Source: a bacterium (GTDB lineage Bacteria > UBP18 > UBA7526). Taken from it: a DNA stretch of 64,000 nt. Positions 39,202 through 42,960 of the stretch are shown piece after piece. The notes under the pieces were generated by a model, which saw only the letters and a list, made by a program, of their open reading frames with translations, had not been told where the DNA came from and made no database searches. Position numbers and translations under genes: made by a program. Numbering within the stretch: position 1 is the stretch's first letter; each line of letters starts with the position of its first letter. The stretch spans positions 68,423 to 132,422 of the forward strand of contig JAUWYL010000002.1 in the NCBI GenBank assembly GCA_030615855.1, given 5' to 3'.

Positions 39202-40505
39202 CTTTTCTTCCTCCTTTCCTTTACCTTTTTCTCCTTTATTCTTGCTCCTTTTACAATAAGTTCCAATGCTTTCTTTAATCTTATCTCTTCCCTTAAGCCA
39301 GCGAGATGGCTTCTCTCTTTGTTAAAAAAGTCTCTCAAATCTTCTTTTTTCTGGCCAGTGCTTAAAGCCATCTCCTCTGTTCTCTTCTCTATCTCTTCTT
39401 CATTTACTTTAATATTCTCTTGCTTTGCAATTTTCTCTAAGATGAGGGTGCTTTTTACCTTCCTCTCTGCGCTCGGGCGATACTTTTCCTTTAGCTTCGC
39501 CTCCTCAATCCCCATCCTCTTGGGATCTATGCCTTGATAGCGCATCCTGGTTAAGGTCTCCTCAAGCATAGCCTCCAGTTCCCTCTCAACCATGGCCGCT
39601 GGAAGAGGAAAGGGGGTCTTTTTTATCAACCAATCCATTAGGTTATTTCTTAAAAGTCTCTCACTGTGCTCTGTCTCATATTTTTCTAAATCCTTCTTAA
39701 TCCTCTTCTTCAGTTCCTCCAAGTTATTGAACTTTAAATCTTTAGCGAACTCATCATTGAGTTCAGGAAGTTTTTTTTCCTTAATCTCCTTTAAATTTAC
39801 CTTGAAGAGGACCTCTTTTCCTACTAATTCTTCATTATGATAATTCTTGGGAAAACTTACCTTGATCTCTTTCTCCTCTCCTTTTTTCAGACCAATCAAC
39901 TGATCCTCGAAATTACTGACTAAAGTCTTGGAGCCGATCTCTAAGGAGAAGTTCTTGGCCTCATTATCCTTGAAGGACTTTCCCTCTATGCTCCCTATAA
40001 AATCGATGATTACCCAGTCCCCCTTCTTCGCCGGCCGATTTTTTATACTAGTAAATTCTGCGTGCCTATGCTGAAGCCTCTCCAGGGCACGATTGATATC
40101 CTCTCCTGTGACTATCTTGATGATTCTTTTCGCTTTGAGCCCTTTATACTTTTTTAAAGTGATCTTCGGTTTTATTTCCACAGTGGCCTTAAAACTCAAG
40201 GGCTCATTATCTTCATACTTTACTTCTTCTATCTTAGGCGGGGAGCAAGGAACAAAATCATTCTCCTTTAGAGCCTTTTGGCAGGCATCAGGAAGGAGTC
40301 GGTCCAGGGCATCTGCTTTTAGGCTTCTGGCAAAATAGGTCTTCAGGACATCGAGGGGAACCTTCCCCCTCCGGAACCCAGGTAGCTTGGCTTTCTTCTG
40401 CAGATCGATATAGAGGTTATCAAGTTCTTTTTTAACTTTATCTGGGGGAACCTCTATTTTCAGAGCTACCTTGCATTCTCCCAGTCTCTCTACTTGCGCT
40501 TTCAT
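39198..40505 (-). CDS. tig: Trigger factor
   Basis: 435 aa with an N-terminal ribosome-binding motif (GFRRGKVP) and a central FKBP-like domain. Confidence 0.85.
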
Positions 40506-40522
40506 AGTTATCCTTGCATTCT

Positions 40523-40581
40523 TGGTGCGGACGGAGGGAGTCGAACCCCCAAGCCAAAAGGCATACGGTCCTAAGCCGTAG
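40523..40581 (-). pseudogene. Partial tRNA: the 3' two-thirds of a Leu(TAG)-like tRNA (anticodon arm, long variable arm, T-arm, acceptor 3' strand plus CCA) with no intact 5' half
   Basis: The reverse complement reads ..CTACGG CTTAGGA CCGTA..GGGGG TTCGACT CCCTC CGTCCGC A CCA. No complementary 5' acceptor strand is present upstream. Confidence 0.5.
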
Positions 40582-40617
40582 CGCCCCGCCCCATTTCCCC
40601 TACCTTATATTGCATTG

Positions 40618-40699
40618 TGGGCGAGAAAGGACTCGAACCTCCACGGGTTTCCCCACATGGTCCTAAGCCATGCGCGTCTACCAGTTCCGCCACTCGCCC
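40618..40699 (-). tRNA. tRNA-Leu (anticodon TAG)
   Basis: The reverse complement is GGGCGAG TG GCGG AACTGGTAGA CGCG CATGG CTTAGGA CCATG TGGGGAAACCCGTG GAGG TTCGAGT CCTT TCTCGCCC A. It has a long variable arm and CCA is not encoded. Confidence 0.8.
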
Positions 40700-40904
40700 A
40701 AAATTACTTATTGTTCGATTAATGAATGGGGCGGGGTAAATCTACCAATGGAGTTTATCCCGCACATTTATTGTGCGGGGCCACGTCCGCCCGCCTTCGT
40801 CCAACTTCTGCCTCTTTTCAGAGTAGACTTCGGCGGGCAAGCTTATTAAGATGGCTCGCCATCCGAAGCCTGCTACCTTAAAAATTCAGAAACAAGGCGA
40901 AGGA

Positions 40905-40980
40905 TGGTACCCCCACCAGGGCTCGAACCTGGGACACCCTGATTAAGAGTCAGGTGCTCTTCCAACTGAGCTATGGGGGC
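40905..40980 (-). tRNA. tRNA-Lys (anticodon CTT)
   Basis: The reverse complement is GCCCCCA TA GCTC AGTTGGAAG AGCA C CTGAC TCTTAAT CAGGG TGTCC CAGG TTCGAGC CCTG GTGGGGGT A CCA. Confidence 0.8.
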
Positions 40981-40982
40981 TG

Positions 40983-41012
40983 GTCCCGTTGATAACTTCG
41001 TATCTACGGGAC
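40983..41012. promoter_or_regulatory. 30-bp hairpin motif GTCCCGT-TGATAACTTCGTATCT-ACGGGAC immediately 5' of tRNA-Lys
   Basis: It has a 7-bp perfect stem and a 16-nt loop. A near-identical copy sits at 57528-57557 (27 of 30 nt match). It is flanked on one side by tRNA-Lys and on the other by a tRNA-Arg 3' fragment. Confidence 0.5.
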
Positions 41013-41030
41013 TGGCGCGCCTGGTAGGAT
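41012..41030 (-). pseudogene. tRNA-Arg(TCT)-like 3'-end fragment (part of the T-stem, the acceptor 3' strand and CCA)
   Basis: The reverse complement is AATCCTACCAGGCGCGCCA. The intact tRNA-Arg(TCT) 3' end reads AATCCTGCCGGGCGCGCCA. The fragment abuts the 30-bp hairpin motif. Confidence 0.45.
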
Positions 41031-41177
41031 TTTTACCCCGTTAGATGTTCTTGTCTCACTCGCCTCGCCTACTCCCTTAGATGGATGCTACGCCTATCTC
41101 ACGGGATAAACGACACAATCTATCTAACGGGGCGGGCCCACGACCTAGTGGTCCGACCTCGCCAAATGCGACTCTAG

Positions 41178-41251
41178 CGCCTCCGGAGGGAGTCGAACCC
41201 CCAACTTTGTGGTCCGAAGCCACACGCTCTATCCAATTGAGCTACGGAGGC
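41178..41251 (-). tRNA. tRNA-Arg (anticodon TCG)
   Basis: The reverse complement is GCCTCCG TA GCTC AATTGGAT AGAGC G TGTGG CTTCGGA CCACA AAGTT GGGGG TTCGACT CCCTC CGGAGGC G. Confidence 0.8.
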
Positions 41252-41461: not shown

Positions 41462-41539
41462 TGGGGTGAGCGAGGGGACTCGAACCCCCGACCACTTGAG
41501 CCACAGTCAAGTGCTCTAACCAACTGAGCTACGCTCACC
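41462..41539 (-). tRNA. tRNA-His (anticodon GTG) with a genomically encoded G-1
   Basis: The reverse complement is G GTGAGCG TA GCTC AGTTGGTTA GAGC A CTTGA CTGTGGC TCAAG TGGTC GGGGG TTCGAGT CCCCT CGCTCAC C CCA. The extra 5' G pairs with C73, the hallmark of tRNA-His. Confidence 0.8.
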
Positions 41540-41563
41540 ATTTTACTAAAATTAAAATCGGGA

Positions 41564-41613
41564 CGACCACCTGGGCCACAACCAGGTGCTCTAACCAACT
41601 GAGCTATAGCCAC
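41564..41613 (-). pseudogene. Truncated tRNA-His(GTG)-like copy (acceptor 5' strand, D-arm and anticodon arm; no T-arm or 3' acceptor)
   Basis: The reverse complement is GGTGGCT AT AGCTCAGTTGGTTAGAGCAC CTGG TTGTGGC CCAGG TGGTCG. It then diverges into AT-rich sequence. It lies 25 nt upstream of the intact tRNA-His. Confidence 0.5.
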
Positions 41614-41671
41614 CAAATTTTTGTCCCACAAAAATTTGATCTTGAACCATCCCTCGCTTATCAGTTCGGGA

Positions 41672-41748
41672 TGGCGCGCCCGGCAGGATTCGAACCTGCG
41701 ACCGTCGGATTAGAAATCCGATGCTCTATCCAACTGAGCTACAGGCGC
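41672..41748 (-). tRNA. tRNA-Arg (anticodon TCT)
   Basis: The reverse complement is GCGCCTG TA GCTC AGTTGGAT AGAGC A TCGGA TTTCTAA TCCGA CGGTC GCAGG TTCGAAT CCTGC CGGGCGC G CCA. Confidence 0.8.
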
Positions 41749-41810
41749 CTCGTCACTGGCATTCCCTGTTAGGCAAAGTTCTAGCTAGGCTACCCTTTGG
41801 CATAAAAGAT

Positions 41811-42560
41811 TTATCGCCAAGCATGAAAAACCATTCTGTTCTGTTGGATTGCCTGAAAGAATGGCCGGCGGGGCTTTTTTATCTTACGACGGATAGCTCT
41901 CGCCACTCTGCGGGAAAGAGAGCGGTATTGTGAAACTATCCTAATCTTTCGGAATCCAACAGTTTTTAACATAGCTTCCACAGCAGCAGGATTTGGCCCC
42001 CACCAACTCGTTGGATCATTCGATAATTCTGCTTCAGGATAAAACCTCATGACTGGACATTTAGTCAAAGCCATGTCTACATATGTCTCTAGTACCAATT
42101 GATCTCCAGTGACATTGAAAACTCGTTCAAGAGCAAAAAGGGGGTGACGTAAATGATAAAGCACTCCCAGTAATAGAACTAAATCAAAAACACCGACTTT
42201 ATCAGGAGAAATGTCATACACATCCATTTCCATATCCTCAACTTTGGAATTGAGAGTTTTCCGTGCAAGCTCAAAACCTGCCTTCGTACCCCATCCTTCT
42301 CTATTTTCTTCATTCCAACAAGGTAAATCAGTTGCCAGAACACGCTTGGCTCCGCGACGCTCCGCTTCAAATGAATAAAATCCATCCCAAGCACCTATAT
42401 CAAGCACGGTCTTTCCTCGTAGATTTTCAGGAAGTTTAAGTATCTTTTTCCAGTCTTTACGAGGATCAATACAGCCAGGTGTTATTACTCCATTCCCTAA
42501 GTCAATCGTGTGCCACCACTTGATTTTCGCTACTTCTTTTTTTAAATCATTTATATTCAT
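41811..42560 (-). CDS. Class I SAM-dependent methyltransferase (TIGR04290-like)
   Basis: 249 aa: MNINDLKKEVAKIKWWHTIDLGNGVITPG... Motif I is VLDIGAWDG. Confidence 0.6.
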   Translation of the reverse strand: MNINDLKKEVAKIKWWHTIDLGNGVITPGCIDPRKDWKKILKLPENLRGKTVLDIGAWDGFYSFEAERRGAKRVLATDLPCWNEENREGWGTKAGFELARKTLNSKVEDMEMDVYDISPDKVGVFDLVLLLGVLYHLRHPLFALERVFNVTGDQLVLETYVDMALTKCPVMRFYPEAELSNDPTSWWGPNPAAVEAMLKTVGFRKIRIVSQYRSLSRRVARAIRRKIKKPRRPFFQAIQQNRMVFHAWR

Positions 42561-42788
42561 AATACCCTTCCTCCCTATGGAATTTCGTCTAACGGAAAAT
42601 AATTGAGATACTTCGTTTATGTCCAGTTCTCACTTTTTATCCGTGCTTATTCGTGTCGTTATCCGTGTTCGTGGTCGGGGTGCCGAGATTTGCCCGCCTC
42701 CGCCAGAGGCGGATGAGCCTCGGGCTCAAGAGGTGGATCCGCCTTCAGCGGAAACTTGGACCTGTCCGATTGAGCCAATCTAATTTAA

Positions 42789-42867
42789 TGGTCGGGAAGG
42801 CGGGATTCGAACCCGCGACCTCGTGCTCCCAAAGCACGCGCGCTAATCCAAGCTGCGCCACTTCCCG
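42789..42867 (-). tRNA. tRNA-Pro (anticodon GGG)
   Basis: The reverse complement is CGGGAAG TG GCGC AGCTTGGATTA GCGC G CGTGC TTTGGGA GCACG AGGTC GCGGG TTCGAAT CCCGC CTTCCCG A CCA. The C1:G72 pair is typical of bacterial tRNA-Pro. Confidence 0.8.
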
Positions 42868-42887
42868 TCATTCGGGCTCAATCGGAC

Positions 42888-42960
42888 CGCGCTAAGCCAA
42901 ACTGCGCCACACCCCGATTCCGACCATCGGGACGCCTAAGTCGAACTGCGCCACTTCCCG
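42888..42960 (-). pseudogene. Two tandem tRNA-Pro-like 5' fragments (acceptor and D-arm only)
   Basis: The reverse complements are CGGGGTGTGGCGCAGTTTGGCTTAGCGCG and CGGGAAGTGGCGCAGTTCGACTTAGGCGTC. Each matches the first 25-28 nt of tRNA-Pro and neither continues into an anticodon arm. Confidence 0.5.

Follow-up and report, generated by a model that had tools for sequence, protein, structure and literature searches.

Transfer RNA (tRNA) genes are usually seen as stable landmarks, which mobile elements use and then restore. Elements integrating at these genes include phages, ICEs (integrative and conjugative elements), genomic islands and archaeal elements of the pNOB8/SSV type, and work by Williams in 2002 is said to have dealt with integrative elements that target and restore tRNA genes. 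Recognised sources of tRNA fragments in prokaryotes are CRISPR spacers and the att (attachment-site) duplications made by integrative elements of kb scale (PMC9897764); in the archaeal Caldiarchaeum, a tRNA-Thr fragment has been connected with a recombinase element of 1.8 kb (PMC3293823). Here, we describe a bacterial tRNA array in which tRNA genes have instead been repeatedly broken and replaced. It lies in a stretch of 64,000 nucleotides of contig JAUWYL010000002.1 (assembly GCA_030615855.1), referred to below as the window, where four resident genes (Pro-TGG, His-GTG, Arg-TCG and Leu-TAG) are broken in the D, anticodon or T arm by inserts of 105-157 bp, which have inverted-repeat ends and a loop with a complete tRNA gene of the same anticodon. 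These inserts are called cassettes throughout, the intact gene within an insert is the inner gene, and the broken gene around it is the outer gene, marked by an asterisk (His*, Pro*, Arg*, Leu*, Lys*). In the interpretation we favour, with a probability of roughly two in three, non-autonomous hairpin elements insert in tRNA loops, insertions bringing a replacement tRNA survive, and the outer halves decay.

Like tRNA-restoring integrative elements, the cassettes land in a tRNA gene, keep a working tRNA and leave a displaced fragment of the old gene as a scar. Integrative elements, however, are kb-scale, encode an integrase, bring along just the portion of the tRNA past the crossover and leave direct repeats (attL/attR), whereas the cassettes are short, non-coding and bounded by inverted repeats, carry a whole tRNA gene and are nested between the halves of the old one. 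Similarity to REP and REPIN sequences with their RAYT enzymes (PMC3116915, PMC3337134) is seen in the short, GC-rich, non-autonomous hairpins with two inverted arms and a spacer as the mobile unit, in the short conserved bases by the hairpin foot and in the lack of an obvious target duplication. REPINs are extragenic and have a short gene-free spacer, whereas the elements described here land in tRNA, transfer-messenger RNA (tmRNA) and protein genes, some of their spacers carry a tRNA gene, and the window showed no RAYT. The palindromic elements of Rickettsia (RPEs; PMC1779305) are likewise palindromic repeats of protein genes, where the reading frame is kept, and of intergenic DNA, and the 30-nt in-frame insertion in an amidase gene described below behaves alike; RPEs are 100-150 bp long and cargo-free, and are not known to disrupt tRNA genes or to supply replacements. 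Of the properties by which palindromic elements are recognised, hairpin ends without coding capacity, multiple copies with the same termini and precise presence/absence polymorphism were found here. Disrupted tRNA genes of Archaea and red algae comprise genes with non-canonical introns, split genes and permuted genes, and intron transposition is known in Thermoproteales. As in these disrupted genes (PMC4033280, PMC3978253), inserts in our array occupy D-loop, anticodon and T-loop positions, and related inserts occur in different tRNAs, a sign of mobility. Archaeal and red algal inserts, however, are removed at bulge-helix-bulge motifs and the host tRNA stays functional, whereas here, in a bacterium, the host tRNA is dead and its function is rescued by a further gene that the insert carries. 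In tRNA genes of bacteria, IStrons and group I introns (PMC4227781) also neutralise the damage of their own insertion, but do so by self-splicing rather than with a spare gene copy. No description of nested tRNA-in-tRNA hairpin cassettes was found in the full-text literature, in which coverage of subscription journals is incomplete, and provisionally tRNA gene replacement by such cassettes appears to be undescribed.

A total of six intact tRNA genes were called in the array, in agreement between ARAGORN and Rfam (55-75 bits), all on the minus strand between positions 40617 and 42867 and in the transcription order Pro(TGG), Arg(TCT), His(GTG), Arg(TCG), Lys(CTT), Leu(TAG). Related loci were collected by trigger factor scans of genome and metagenome collections (L001-L006, five related loci and one distant) and by exact-protein look-ups (nine further loci, L007-L015), with L037-L040 serving the comparison of a second locus at smpB/Leu(CAG); the relatives amount to ~15 independent assemblies (NCBI metagenome-assembled genomes [MAGs], JGI, ENA, Logan). 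All intact tRNA alleles of the arrays were aligned by BLAST to all arrays with intact genes masked. The trigger factor had 15 homologues at ≥70% identity, all from MAGs or metagenomes, before the next drop to 44%, and the source lineage is one of deep-branching uncultured bacteria.

A first-pass annotation of the window had recorded partial tRNA sequences beside the intact genes, and its Leu-like 3' two-thirds, its His-like 5' two-thirds 25 nt upstream of His and its two Pro-like 5' fragments are all present (Table 1). It took them for decayed partial copies of their neighbours, whereas they derive from a different, former resident allele: the outer pieces are 98-100% identical to uninterrupted orthologues at the same position in related genomes, while their identity to the adjacent intact gene is just ~70-86%, with matches at 38/43 (His), 25/29 (Pro) and 40/57 (Leu) positions and with differences that include paired compensatory changes in anticodon stems. 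High identity to the orthologues combined with low identity to the neighbour indicates that the fragments are former residents and not neighbour copies. Resident alleles were found intact at the same position in L001, L002, L005, L007, L008, L011, L012 and L015, and the pieces aligned to the alleles of other genomes on the same strand and in tRNA order with BLAST E-values of 1e-3 to 8e-27, far better than random matches. When read on the coding strand, every fragment has its partner piece or pieces across the adjacent intact gene, including a His* 3' end, a Leu* 5' end with a D-loop piece and a Pro* 3' end that had previously been missed. It is close to certain that the presumed partial copies are broken parts of older tRNA genes, and that the array consists of split residents and replacement cassettes.

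Alignments of the individual pieces were nearly free of mismatches. The His* 5' piece matched positions 1-50 of the uninterrupted His gene of L001/L012 at 49/50 (98%) and the His* 3' piece matched His of L001 at 11/11, while the Leu* 3' piece agreed with Leu of L001/L002 at 60/61. Alignment of the Pro* 5' piece to the uninterrupted CGGGGTG-type Pro(TGG) gene of L005 gave 100% over positions 1-22 in BLAST and 28/28 in the best gapped alignment, with one extra T in the window D loop; the Pro* 3' piece was identical to positions 60-78 of Pro in L007 (19/19). The intact Pro gene itself, previously given the anticodon GGG, reads TGG. Three Arg* pieces correspond to positions 1-23 (23/23), 35-54 (20/20) and 58-77 (20/20) of the uninterrupted Arg(TCG) gene, which in L005, L008, L011 and L015 is of the GCGCCTG type. 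The first and last of these had been reported as Arg(TCT)-like; they are present, but their identity is Arg(TCG), as they fit Arg(TCT) at 19/20 and 17/19 positions versus 23/23 and 20/20 for Arg(TCG), and the additional middle piece carries the TCG anticodon loop. Arg(TCT) itself was never hit or nested in any relative.

The inner gene of each pair is the working one, and the outer pieces are pseudogene debris. Every inner gene scored 50-75 bits and no outer gene reached the Rfam threshold of 29 bits, with the His* 5' piece at 27.5 bits (E = 0.007). His* (without a T arm), Pro* (without an anticodon arm) and Arg* (without 11 nt that include the anticodon-stem 5' strand) defy reconstruction, since the inserts did not merely interrupt an arm but took the place of all or part of it; in addition, the His* acceptor stem has an A7:C66 mismatch. 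The three Leu* pieces, when joined, were called as tRNA-Leu(TAG) by ARAGORN. Outer 3' parts have been deleted in L005, L008 and L012 (in L005 and L008, the right arm and the His* 3' piece are gone), the Pro nest of L015 is reduced to its right half, the left one being lost, and L003, L012 and L013 have up to three extra hairpin insertions within one outer gene. Outer genes are thus clearly not being maintained, but gain further hairpins and are progressively deleted.

With the exception of Arg, folding of the cassettes places a cloverleaf within a terminal stem that is closed (z-scores of -3.5 to -5.5). Inverted repeats noted earlier at His and Pro were confirmed, that of His having 14-nt arms with 93% complementarity (fold z = -4.9) and that of Pro a 13-nt perfect core inside 22-nt arms with 82% complementarity, on which the fold closes (z = -5.5). 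Further repeats were identified at Leu (CCCCGCCCCATT/AATGGGGCGGGG, 12/12 complementary; fold z = -3.5) and, in weaker form, at Arg(TCG). Inner alleles recur as ordinary genes elsewhere: the GTGAGCG-type His is the native single gene in L011 and L013, the GCCTCCG-type Arg is the native single gene in L013, and inner Pro is identical to the sole Pro gene of L001 and L002.

Comparison of the relatives revealed filled and empty sites in a pattern that varies from tRNA to tRNA. The His site was filled in the window, L003/L014, L005, L008 and L015 and empty in L001, L002 and L012; the Leu site was filled in the window, L003/L014 and L012 and empty in L001, L002, L004, L005, L007-L010, L013 and L015; the Arg(TCG) site was filled in the window, L001 and L002 and empty in L005, L007, L008, L011 and L015; and the Pro site was filled in the window and L008, with the outer-type allele intact in L005 and L007. 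Intact genes in place of fragments in relatives had been expected to expose mis-delimited fragments; such relatives exist, but since they show empty as against filled insertion sites, the delimitation stands. Nested junctions were alike base for base across projects and assemblers for His (window, L003, L005, L008, L015) and for Lys (L003, L004, L005, L008, L009, L014), and their recurrence in assemblies of unrelated projects argues against an assembly artefact.

Nesting is not confined to the four window events. Lys is single in the window, and in the six relatives just listed for it a Lys(CTT) gene is nested in the T loop of Lys(CTT), while L012 and L013 have a different Lys(CTT) allele in place of the anticodon arm of the same outer gene. 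In L012, a third Arg(TCG) allele is nested in a GCCTCCG-type gene, the type of the inner gene in the window, making this a serial replacement; the same genome has another Leu(TAG) allele at the same D-loop junction. At the second locus, beside smpB, a Leu(CAG) allele is nested in the resident Leu(CAG) in L037 and L040. A 24-nt 5' fragment of a GGGCGAG-type Leu, the type of the inner Leu(TAG) allele of the window, lies inside the broken Leu(CAG) of L040 upstream of the inner Leu(CAG) (positions 2310-2333 of L040), and suggests an earlier cassette that was itself overwritten. Collectively, at least nine distinct events affect seven tRNA species, including Lys-CTT and Leu-CAG, and inner and outer anticodons are the same in every one. 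The net effect is tRNA allele replacement, sometimes serial.

The hairpins could be assigned to families by their termini. Family 1 (CCCG-CCCCG...CGGGG-T(G/A)AA(A/G)) was found in nine tail-bearing copies at seven sites. Copies with the arms CACCTTT/AAAGGTG (CCCGCCCCGCACCTTT...AAAGGTGCGGGGT) carry tRNA-Lys in the Lys T loop and a 49-nt AT-rich filler without tRNA in the His* D loop of L008. Copies with the arms TTAGA(A/T)/(A/T)TCTAA are tRNA-free; they occupy the T loop of Arg* in the window, that of Leu* in L003 and that of Lys* in L012 and L013, as well as the His* D loop of L005. The Arg* element, with a fold z of -5.2, is thus related by family to elements of L003, L005, L012 and L013. These two sub-families occur in four different tRNAs. 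Family 1 insertions in T loops always follow G53 and replace TTCG or TTC, and in the D loop TTGG is replaced; the Lys T-loop site and the His D-loop site have alternative fillings in different genomes. Family 2 (CCCCGY...RCGGGG-CAGG) is a D-arm family, with CAGG-tailed hairpins at eight D-arm sites, and is inserted exactly between D-loop G18 and G19 in the Lys* genes of L012 and L013 and in one Arg gene of L012. Family 3 (YCCCGAT...ATCGGGR) provides the arms of the three cassettes that replace an arm, those of His, of Pro and of the second Lys event. A left arm CCCCGCACCAATTT adjoins Arg cargo in L001 and Leu cargo in L012. Hairpins are also nested in the loops of other hairpins. The small Leu* D-loop hairpin of the window recurs in L012 and, as a variant, in L003, and the Pro* T-loop site has a shorter version of its hairpin in L008 and another filling in L015. 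Asymmetric elements are mostly oriented as the tRNA genes; 3 of ~10 are opposite, and there is thus no strict strand rule.

Elements were present or absent at precise sites among close relatives not only at tRNA loci but also in an amidase gene and in tmRNA. The amidase insertion, near the N-terminus of an AMIN/Amidase_3 protein, adds 10 codons (NPAPVSRSGV) and is specific to the window, with no copy at the exact site in the orthologues of L040 and L038. The tmRNA gene of L038 (positions 2940-3362 of that locus) has a 68-nt insertion of two hairpins, GTCCCGT..ACGGGAC and TCCCGATTTATCGGGA, that is absent from the window, L039 and L040, and it still scores 185 bits in Rfam. Shared termini at identical loop positions with varied or no cargo, together with the copies in tmRNA and a protein gene, point to small palindromic mobile elements, which behave as REP/REPIN-like or RPE-like selfish hairpins do (PMC3116915, PMC1779305). 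In a separate observation, positions 5472-5552 of the window, within a GT2 glycosyltransferase open reading frame (ORF, 4958-5857), hold two CTACGGGGCAGG motifs and encode ~29 residues (LPRRKPTCPVASASAGWYGEAFLRGENEG), and the Pfam GT2 match ends at residue 103, immediately before the segment; it may be another in-frame hairpin insertion.

The favoured interpretation can be set out as follows. The elements would be non-autonomous mobile DNA of the REP/REPIN, RPE or miniature inverted-repeat transposable element (MITE) kind, and an enzyme from another locus would move them in trans, probably in the form of folded single strands; the likeliest mover would be an HUH/RAYT-like single-strand transposase or a structure-specific recombinase. 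Targets would be the loops that folded structures form, those of other hairpins among them, with tRNA genes as habitual landing sites and their conserved D-loop and T-loop motifs serving as landing sites; short conserved bases lie beside the hairpin foot, as in REP/IS200-type systems. An insertion would normally kill the tRNA gene. Since a hit on a needed tRNA gene is expected to be harmful or lethal, the only insertions to persist would be those in already dead genes and those delivering a working substitute, and this survival filter would account for the anticodon match of every nested pair. As to cargo capture, our guess is that a tRNA gene becomes enclosed between two arms in the style of a composite element. 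A further proposal, which we put forward tentatively and would sooner expect to fail than to stand, is a self-propagating tRNA-replacement system, in which cassettes recognise D/T-loop motifs or arm junctions, destroy the resident gene and supply the sole working copy.

Several observations weigh against the favoured interpretation. A Pfam/NCBIfam scan of 41 window ORFs across the 64 kb gave no transposase, integrase or other recombinase, reverse transcriptase or HUH enzyme; these ORFs are housekeeping and polysaccharide-synthesis genes, with no family match for 57691-59268 (+) and 56882-57571 and a weak sub-threshold LptA/LptD-like match only for 25294-27423. No clear target-site duplications were seen, and several events replace target bases, from 3-4 nt of a loop to an entire arm of 17 nt, and this does not agree neatly with any transposition chemistry known. 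The loci inspected contained no free-standing donor cassette, and no tRNA was observed in the act of entering a hairpin loop. In the window Arg cassette, the inverted repeat is imperfect and the stem weak (z = -0.75). The Lys T-loop event has identical inner and outer alleles, and that cargo was therefore not imported from another lineage. Finally, ~160 kb of the lineage was inspected with sampling centred on tRNA loci, and the target preference consequently rests on identity of position and not on a genome-wide census.

Among the alternatives, remnants of att sites, left by phages, ICEs or islands that were integrated by tyrosine integrases and later excised or deleted, would draw on the role of tRNA genes as classic integration sites, with partial tRNA duplicates as the usual scar (PMC9897764; PMC3293823). 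An att-like arrangement, unlike the nested events, does occur, though solely in L007, the most distant member of the clade, in which a 20-nt upstream flank and the 5' half of Pro(TGG) as far as the anticodon loop are directly duplicated ~130 nt apart (positions 3888-3930 and 4066-4110 of L007). We nevertheless consider this origin very improbable for the window, where a 5' piece, a whole gene and a 3' piece are nested rather than arranged as direct repeats, the pieces are complementary parts of one gene and not duplicates, whole 17-nt arms are exchanged for hairpins, the 105-157 bp inserts have inverted-repeat ends without an ORF or integrase, and the pattern recurs at least nine times. The footprint of insertion and excision proposed by the first-pass annotation holds in so far as the fragments record insertions and the Arg halves flank another tRNA, but att repeats, an integrase and a kb-scale element were not found. 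Uptake of foreign DNA from sister lineages by homology-facilitated illegitimate recombination anchored on tRNAs, with the hairpins as unrelated nearby repeats and without any mobile element dedicated to carrying tRNAs, is an unlikely account, although the His and Arg inner alleles are native in sister lineages (GTGAGCG in L011 and L013; GCCTCCG in L013) and the array varies among relatives by many small indels and inserted ORFs. It leaves unexplained why inverted repeats start exactly at the break of the outer gene, why identical arms enclose different cargos, why different tRNAs are broken at equivalent positions of their loops, and how the Lys event came to have identical inner and outer alleles.

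We attach an equally low weight to an RNA-mediated route, in which structured RNAs with pairing ends, such as hairpin RNAs, pre-tRNAs or CCA-bearing mature tRNAs, were ligated into nicked tRNA loops (e.g. by an RtcB-type ligase), reverse-transcribed and recombined into the gene. Such a route would fit breaks at single-stranded loops or at the exact arm bases of the folded cloverleaf, the nesting of hairpins in the loops of other hairpins and the CCA or CTA with which most inner genes end right before the linker, inner Pro having a CCA that the otherwise identical allele of L001 and L002 does not. Most native genes of the clade encode CCA anyway, however, and the inner genes carry 5-25 nt AT-rich linkers that are not tRNA sequence, hairpins are also found in a protein-coding gene, which is no folded tRNA, and no reverse transcriptase was seen in the window. 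Barely credible in our view is that the outer genes continue to function as disrupted tRNAs like the intron-containing or split tRNAs of Archaea, with the cassette as an intron or split point and the halves being rejoined, or pairing in trans, once RNase P and RNase Z have released the inner tRNA. The inverted repeat could hold the halves together after such excision, and the outer pieces of the window are almost unmutated; yet arms are missing from His*, Pro* and Arg*, the mismatch in the His* acceptor stem has been noted above, relatives have deleted outer 3' parts or added up to three insertions, Leu* alone is recognised as a tRNA after removal of the insert, and no intron matched in Rfam. 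The geometry, with a stem, an asymmetric internal loop and a long helix, showed no bulge-helix-bulge by inspection, no dedicated search for that motif having been run. Split or permuted tRNA remnants, offered earlier as a possibility, are thus not supported as functional genes, the outer pieces being without whole arms, gaining insertions and being partly deleted in relatives. Local tandem duplication with later decay of the tRNA genes, or an artefact of metagenome assembly where tRNA sequence is repeated, has an almost negligible chance of being correct: tRNA arrays do evolve by duplication and all data come from MAG or metagenome assemblies, but the fragments match a different allele than the neighbour, with compensatory stem changes, and the same junctions appear in assemblies of different projects, with secondary differences that track genome divergence.

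A number of other candidates were tried and rejected. Rfam searches of the window region and 16 related loci, at gathering thresholds and at E ≤ 10, returned only tRNA and tmRNA and no ribozyme core; group I and II introns were rejected for want of a ribozyme family match, and hits to Plastid-ycf2, YrlA and similar families were antisense-tRNA noise. A scan of IMG/VR for a viral origin, with the termini CCCGCCCCGCACCTTT and CCCGCCCCGTTAGAWG, gave 21 matches, all without the partner arm and therefore regarded as chance matches. Integron attC sites are recombined by the IntI integrase, have the order R'' RYYYAAC ... R' GTTRRRY and take insertions between G and TT. Some insertions follow G and replace TT.., for which a structure-specific recombinase would be conceivable, but the TTAGAT arms hold GTTAGAT...ATCTAAC, the reverse of the attC order, and there is no integrase in the window, and an integron cassette was rejected. 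A likeness to CRISPR repeats (hairpin plus ATAAAC or TGAAAG tails) was unsupported, with no array and with stems and loops that vary. The cassettes are neither att scars nor introns of any known kind, and they are not integron cassettes.

The window is bacterial and densely packed with genes, nearly all of them on the minus strand, and the tmRNA, SmpB and trigger factor are bacterial markers of the organism. The array is located between rdgB (42964-43545) and tig-clpP-lon (tig 39198-40505), downstream of murI, the fumarase subunits and rph, with tmRNA and Leu(CAG) ~8 kb away. Positions of the individual features are given in Table 1.

Table 1 Features of the tRNA array and its surroundings (window positions unless a relative is named; an asterisk marks a broken outer gene)
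Feature	Position	Strand	Sequence or content
F1, 5' fragment of CGGGAAG-type tRNA-Pro	42933-42960	-	acceptor 5' strand and altered D arm
Pro* 5' piece	42888-42916	-	CGGGGTG...GCGCG; acceptor 5' strand and D arm
Pro cassette	42764-42887	-	in place of 17-nt Pro* anticodon arm
Pro cassette, left inverted repeat	42875-42887	-	GTCCGATTGAGCC
Intact inner tRNA-Pro(TGG)	42789-42867	-	
Pro cassette, right inverted repeat	42764-42776	-	GGCTCAATCGGAC
Pro* middle piece	42752-42763	-	AGGTCCAAGTTT; variable loop and T-stem 5' strand
Cargo-less 59-nt hairpin insertion	42693-42751	-	CCGC...GCGG type; T loop of dead Pro*
Pro* 3' piece	42672-42692	-	CAAATCTCGGCACCCCGACCA; T-loop remainder, T-stem 3' strand, acceptor 3' strand, ACCA
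Methyltransferase ORF	41811-42560	-	249 aa; Methyltransf_9/23; weak TIGR04290/CmoB-like match below curated cut-offs
Intact tRNA-Arg(TCT)	41672-41748	-	
His* 5' piece	41564-41614	-	G-GTGGCTA...GGTCG; G-1, acceptor 5' strand, D arm, GTG anticodon arm, variable loop
His cassette	41446-41563	-	in place of 17-nt His* T arm
His cassette, left inverted repeat	41553-41563	-	TCCCGATTTTA
Intact inner tRNA-His(GTG)	41462-41538	-	
His cassette, right inverted repeat	41446-41456	-	TAAAATCGGGA
His* 3' piece	41434-41445	-	TCAGCCACCCCA; acceptor 3' strand, C73, CCA
Arg* piece 1	41262-41284	-	
Arg cassette	41157-41261	-	in place of Arg* positions 24-34; arms CCCCGCAAAT and CGCATTTGGCGAGG around inner gene
Intact inner tRNA-Arg(TCG)	41177-41251	-	
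Arg* piece 2	41137-41156	-	anticodon-loop 3' part TCGGA, stem, variable loop, T-stem 5' strand
Cargo-less 104-nt palindromic element	41033-41136	-	CCCG-CCCCGTTAGAT...ATCTAACGGGG-TAAA; in place of TTC in Arg* T loop
Arg* piece 3	41013-41032	-	T-loop end, T-stem 3' strand, acceptor 3' strand, CCA
Intact single tRNA-Lys(CTT)	40905-40980	-	
Leu* 5' piece	40780-40790	-	GCGGACGTGGC
Small hairpin insertion	40750-40779	-	CCCGCACAATAAATGTGCGGG-ATAAACTCC; Leu* D loop
Leu* D-loop piece	40741-40749	-	ATTGGTAGA
Leu cassette	40584-40740	-	in Leu* D loop
Leu cassette, left inverted repeat	40725-40736	-	CCCCGCCCCATT, preceded by TTTA
Intact inner tRNA-Leu(TAG)	40617-40699	-	
Leu cassette, right inverted repeat	40584-40595	-	AATGGGGCGGGG
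Leu* 3' piece	40523-40583	-	CGCTACGG...GTCCGCACCA; D-stem 3' strand, TAG anticodon arm, variable arm, T arm, acceptor 3' strand, CCA
Hairpin-family copy in amidase gene	48853-48882	-	AACCCCGCCCCTGTGTCCAGGAGCGGGGTA; 30 nt, in frame (ORF 47475-48971)
Cargo-less hairpin-family copy	50287-50316	+	CCCCGCTCCTC...GAGGGGCGGGG-TAAAG; 17 nt upstream of tRNA-Leu(CAG)
Heptamer clusters	41289-41340, 41400-41432, 42636-42660, 49030-49110, 50320-50355		
Heptamer clusters in relatives	L003 780-880, L004 160-230, L013 1640-1680		

At the upstream edge of the array, fragment F1 abuts the rdgB stop codon, in the same place as the intact Pro gene of L001, L002 and L015. A small hairpin (TCCCGAT-GGTCGGA-ATCGGGG, 42912-42932) links F1 to the start of Pro*, its loop resembling the Arg(TCG) anticodon loop, and the F1 D loop, with TTCGAC in place of CTTGGA, might be the scar of an earlier insertion or excision. 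The methyltransferase ORF occupies a ~920-bp stretch between Pro* and Arg(TCT), genes that are 0-1 nt apart in L001, L002, L005 and L008; at ~0.41 its GC content is within the range of neighbouring genes, and composition thus gives no sign of foreign origin. In L008, two small low-GC ORFs without Pfam matches (196 and 189 aa, positions 1898-2488 and 3497-4066 of that locus; membrane-protein-like by eye) sit between rdgB and Pro and between Leu and tig, and the array edges are hotspots for small gene insertions too.

Spacers by the tRNA, tmRNA and tig genes contain clusters of the heptamers ATCCGTG/ATCTGTG (CACGGAT/CACAGAT on the other strand) at a spacing of ~11-13 nt, which might act as a promoter element or be bound by a protein. 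L038 has, between Leu(CAG) and smpB, three tandem units of ~48 nt (TTAATAGAnGGGGTAAATGAAGTGTGCCTTCATATTAATTAAAA; positions 1830-1950 of L038), of which the window has one copy (~50090-50135). The predicted tmRNA tag (window gene at 49119-49468) is ANEQLAYVC in the window, L039 and L040, with a Cys end, and ANEQLAFAPA in L038; a Cys ending is unusual for an SsrA tag.

The cassettes give a sequence-level mechanism for the turnover of tRNA alleles and the horizontal spread of tRNAs, and account for tRNA 'pseudogene' fragments (5' and internal pieces) that annotation pipelines would mislabel. They also offer a bacterial system in which to test directly whether mobile elements created disrupted tRNA genes, and point to an enzyme specific for loop motifs of tRNA genes, which could have practical interest. 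If the cassettes were indeed a self-propagating system, 'addictive' selfish tRNA genes would drive a rapid, serial and horizontal turnover of tRNA alleles in a bacterial lineage, which would imply an undescribed structure-specific insertion enzyme and would represent a live bacterial example of the process postulated to yield split and intron-containing tRNA genes.

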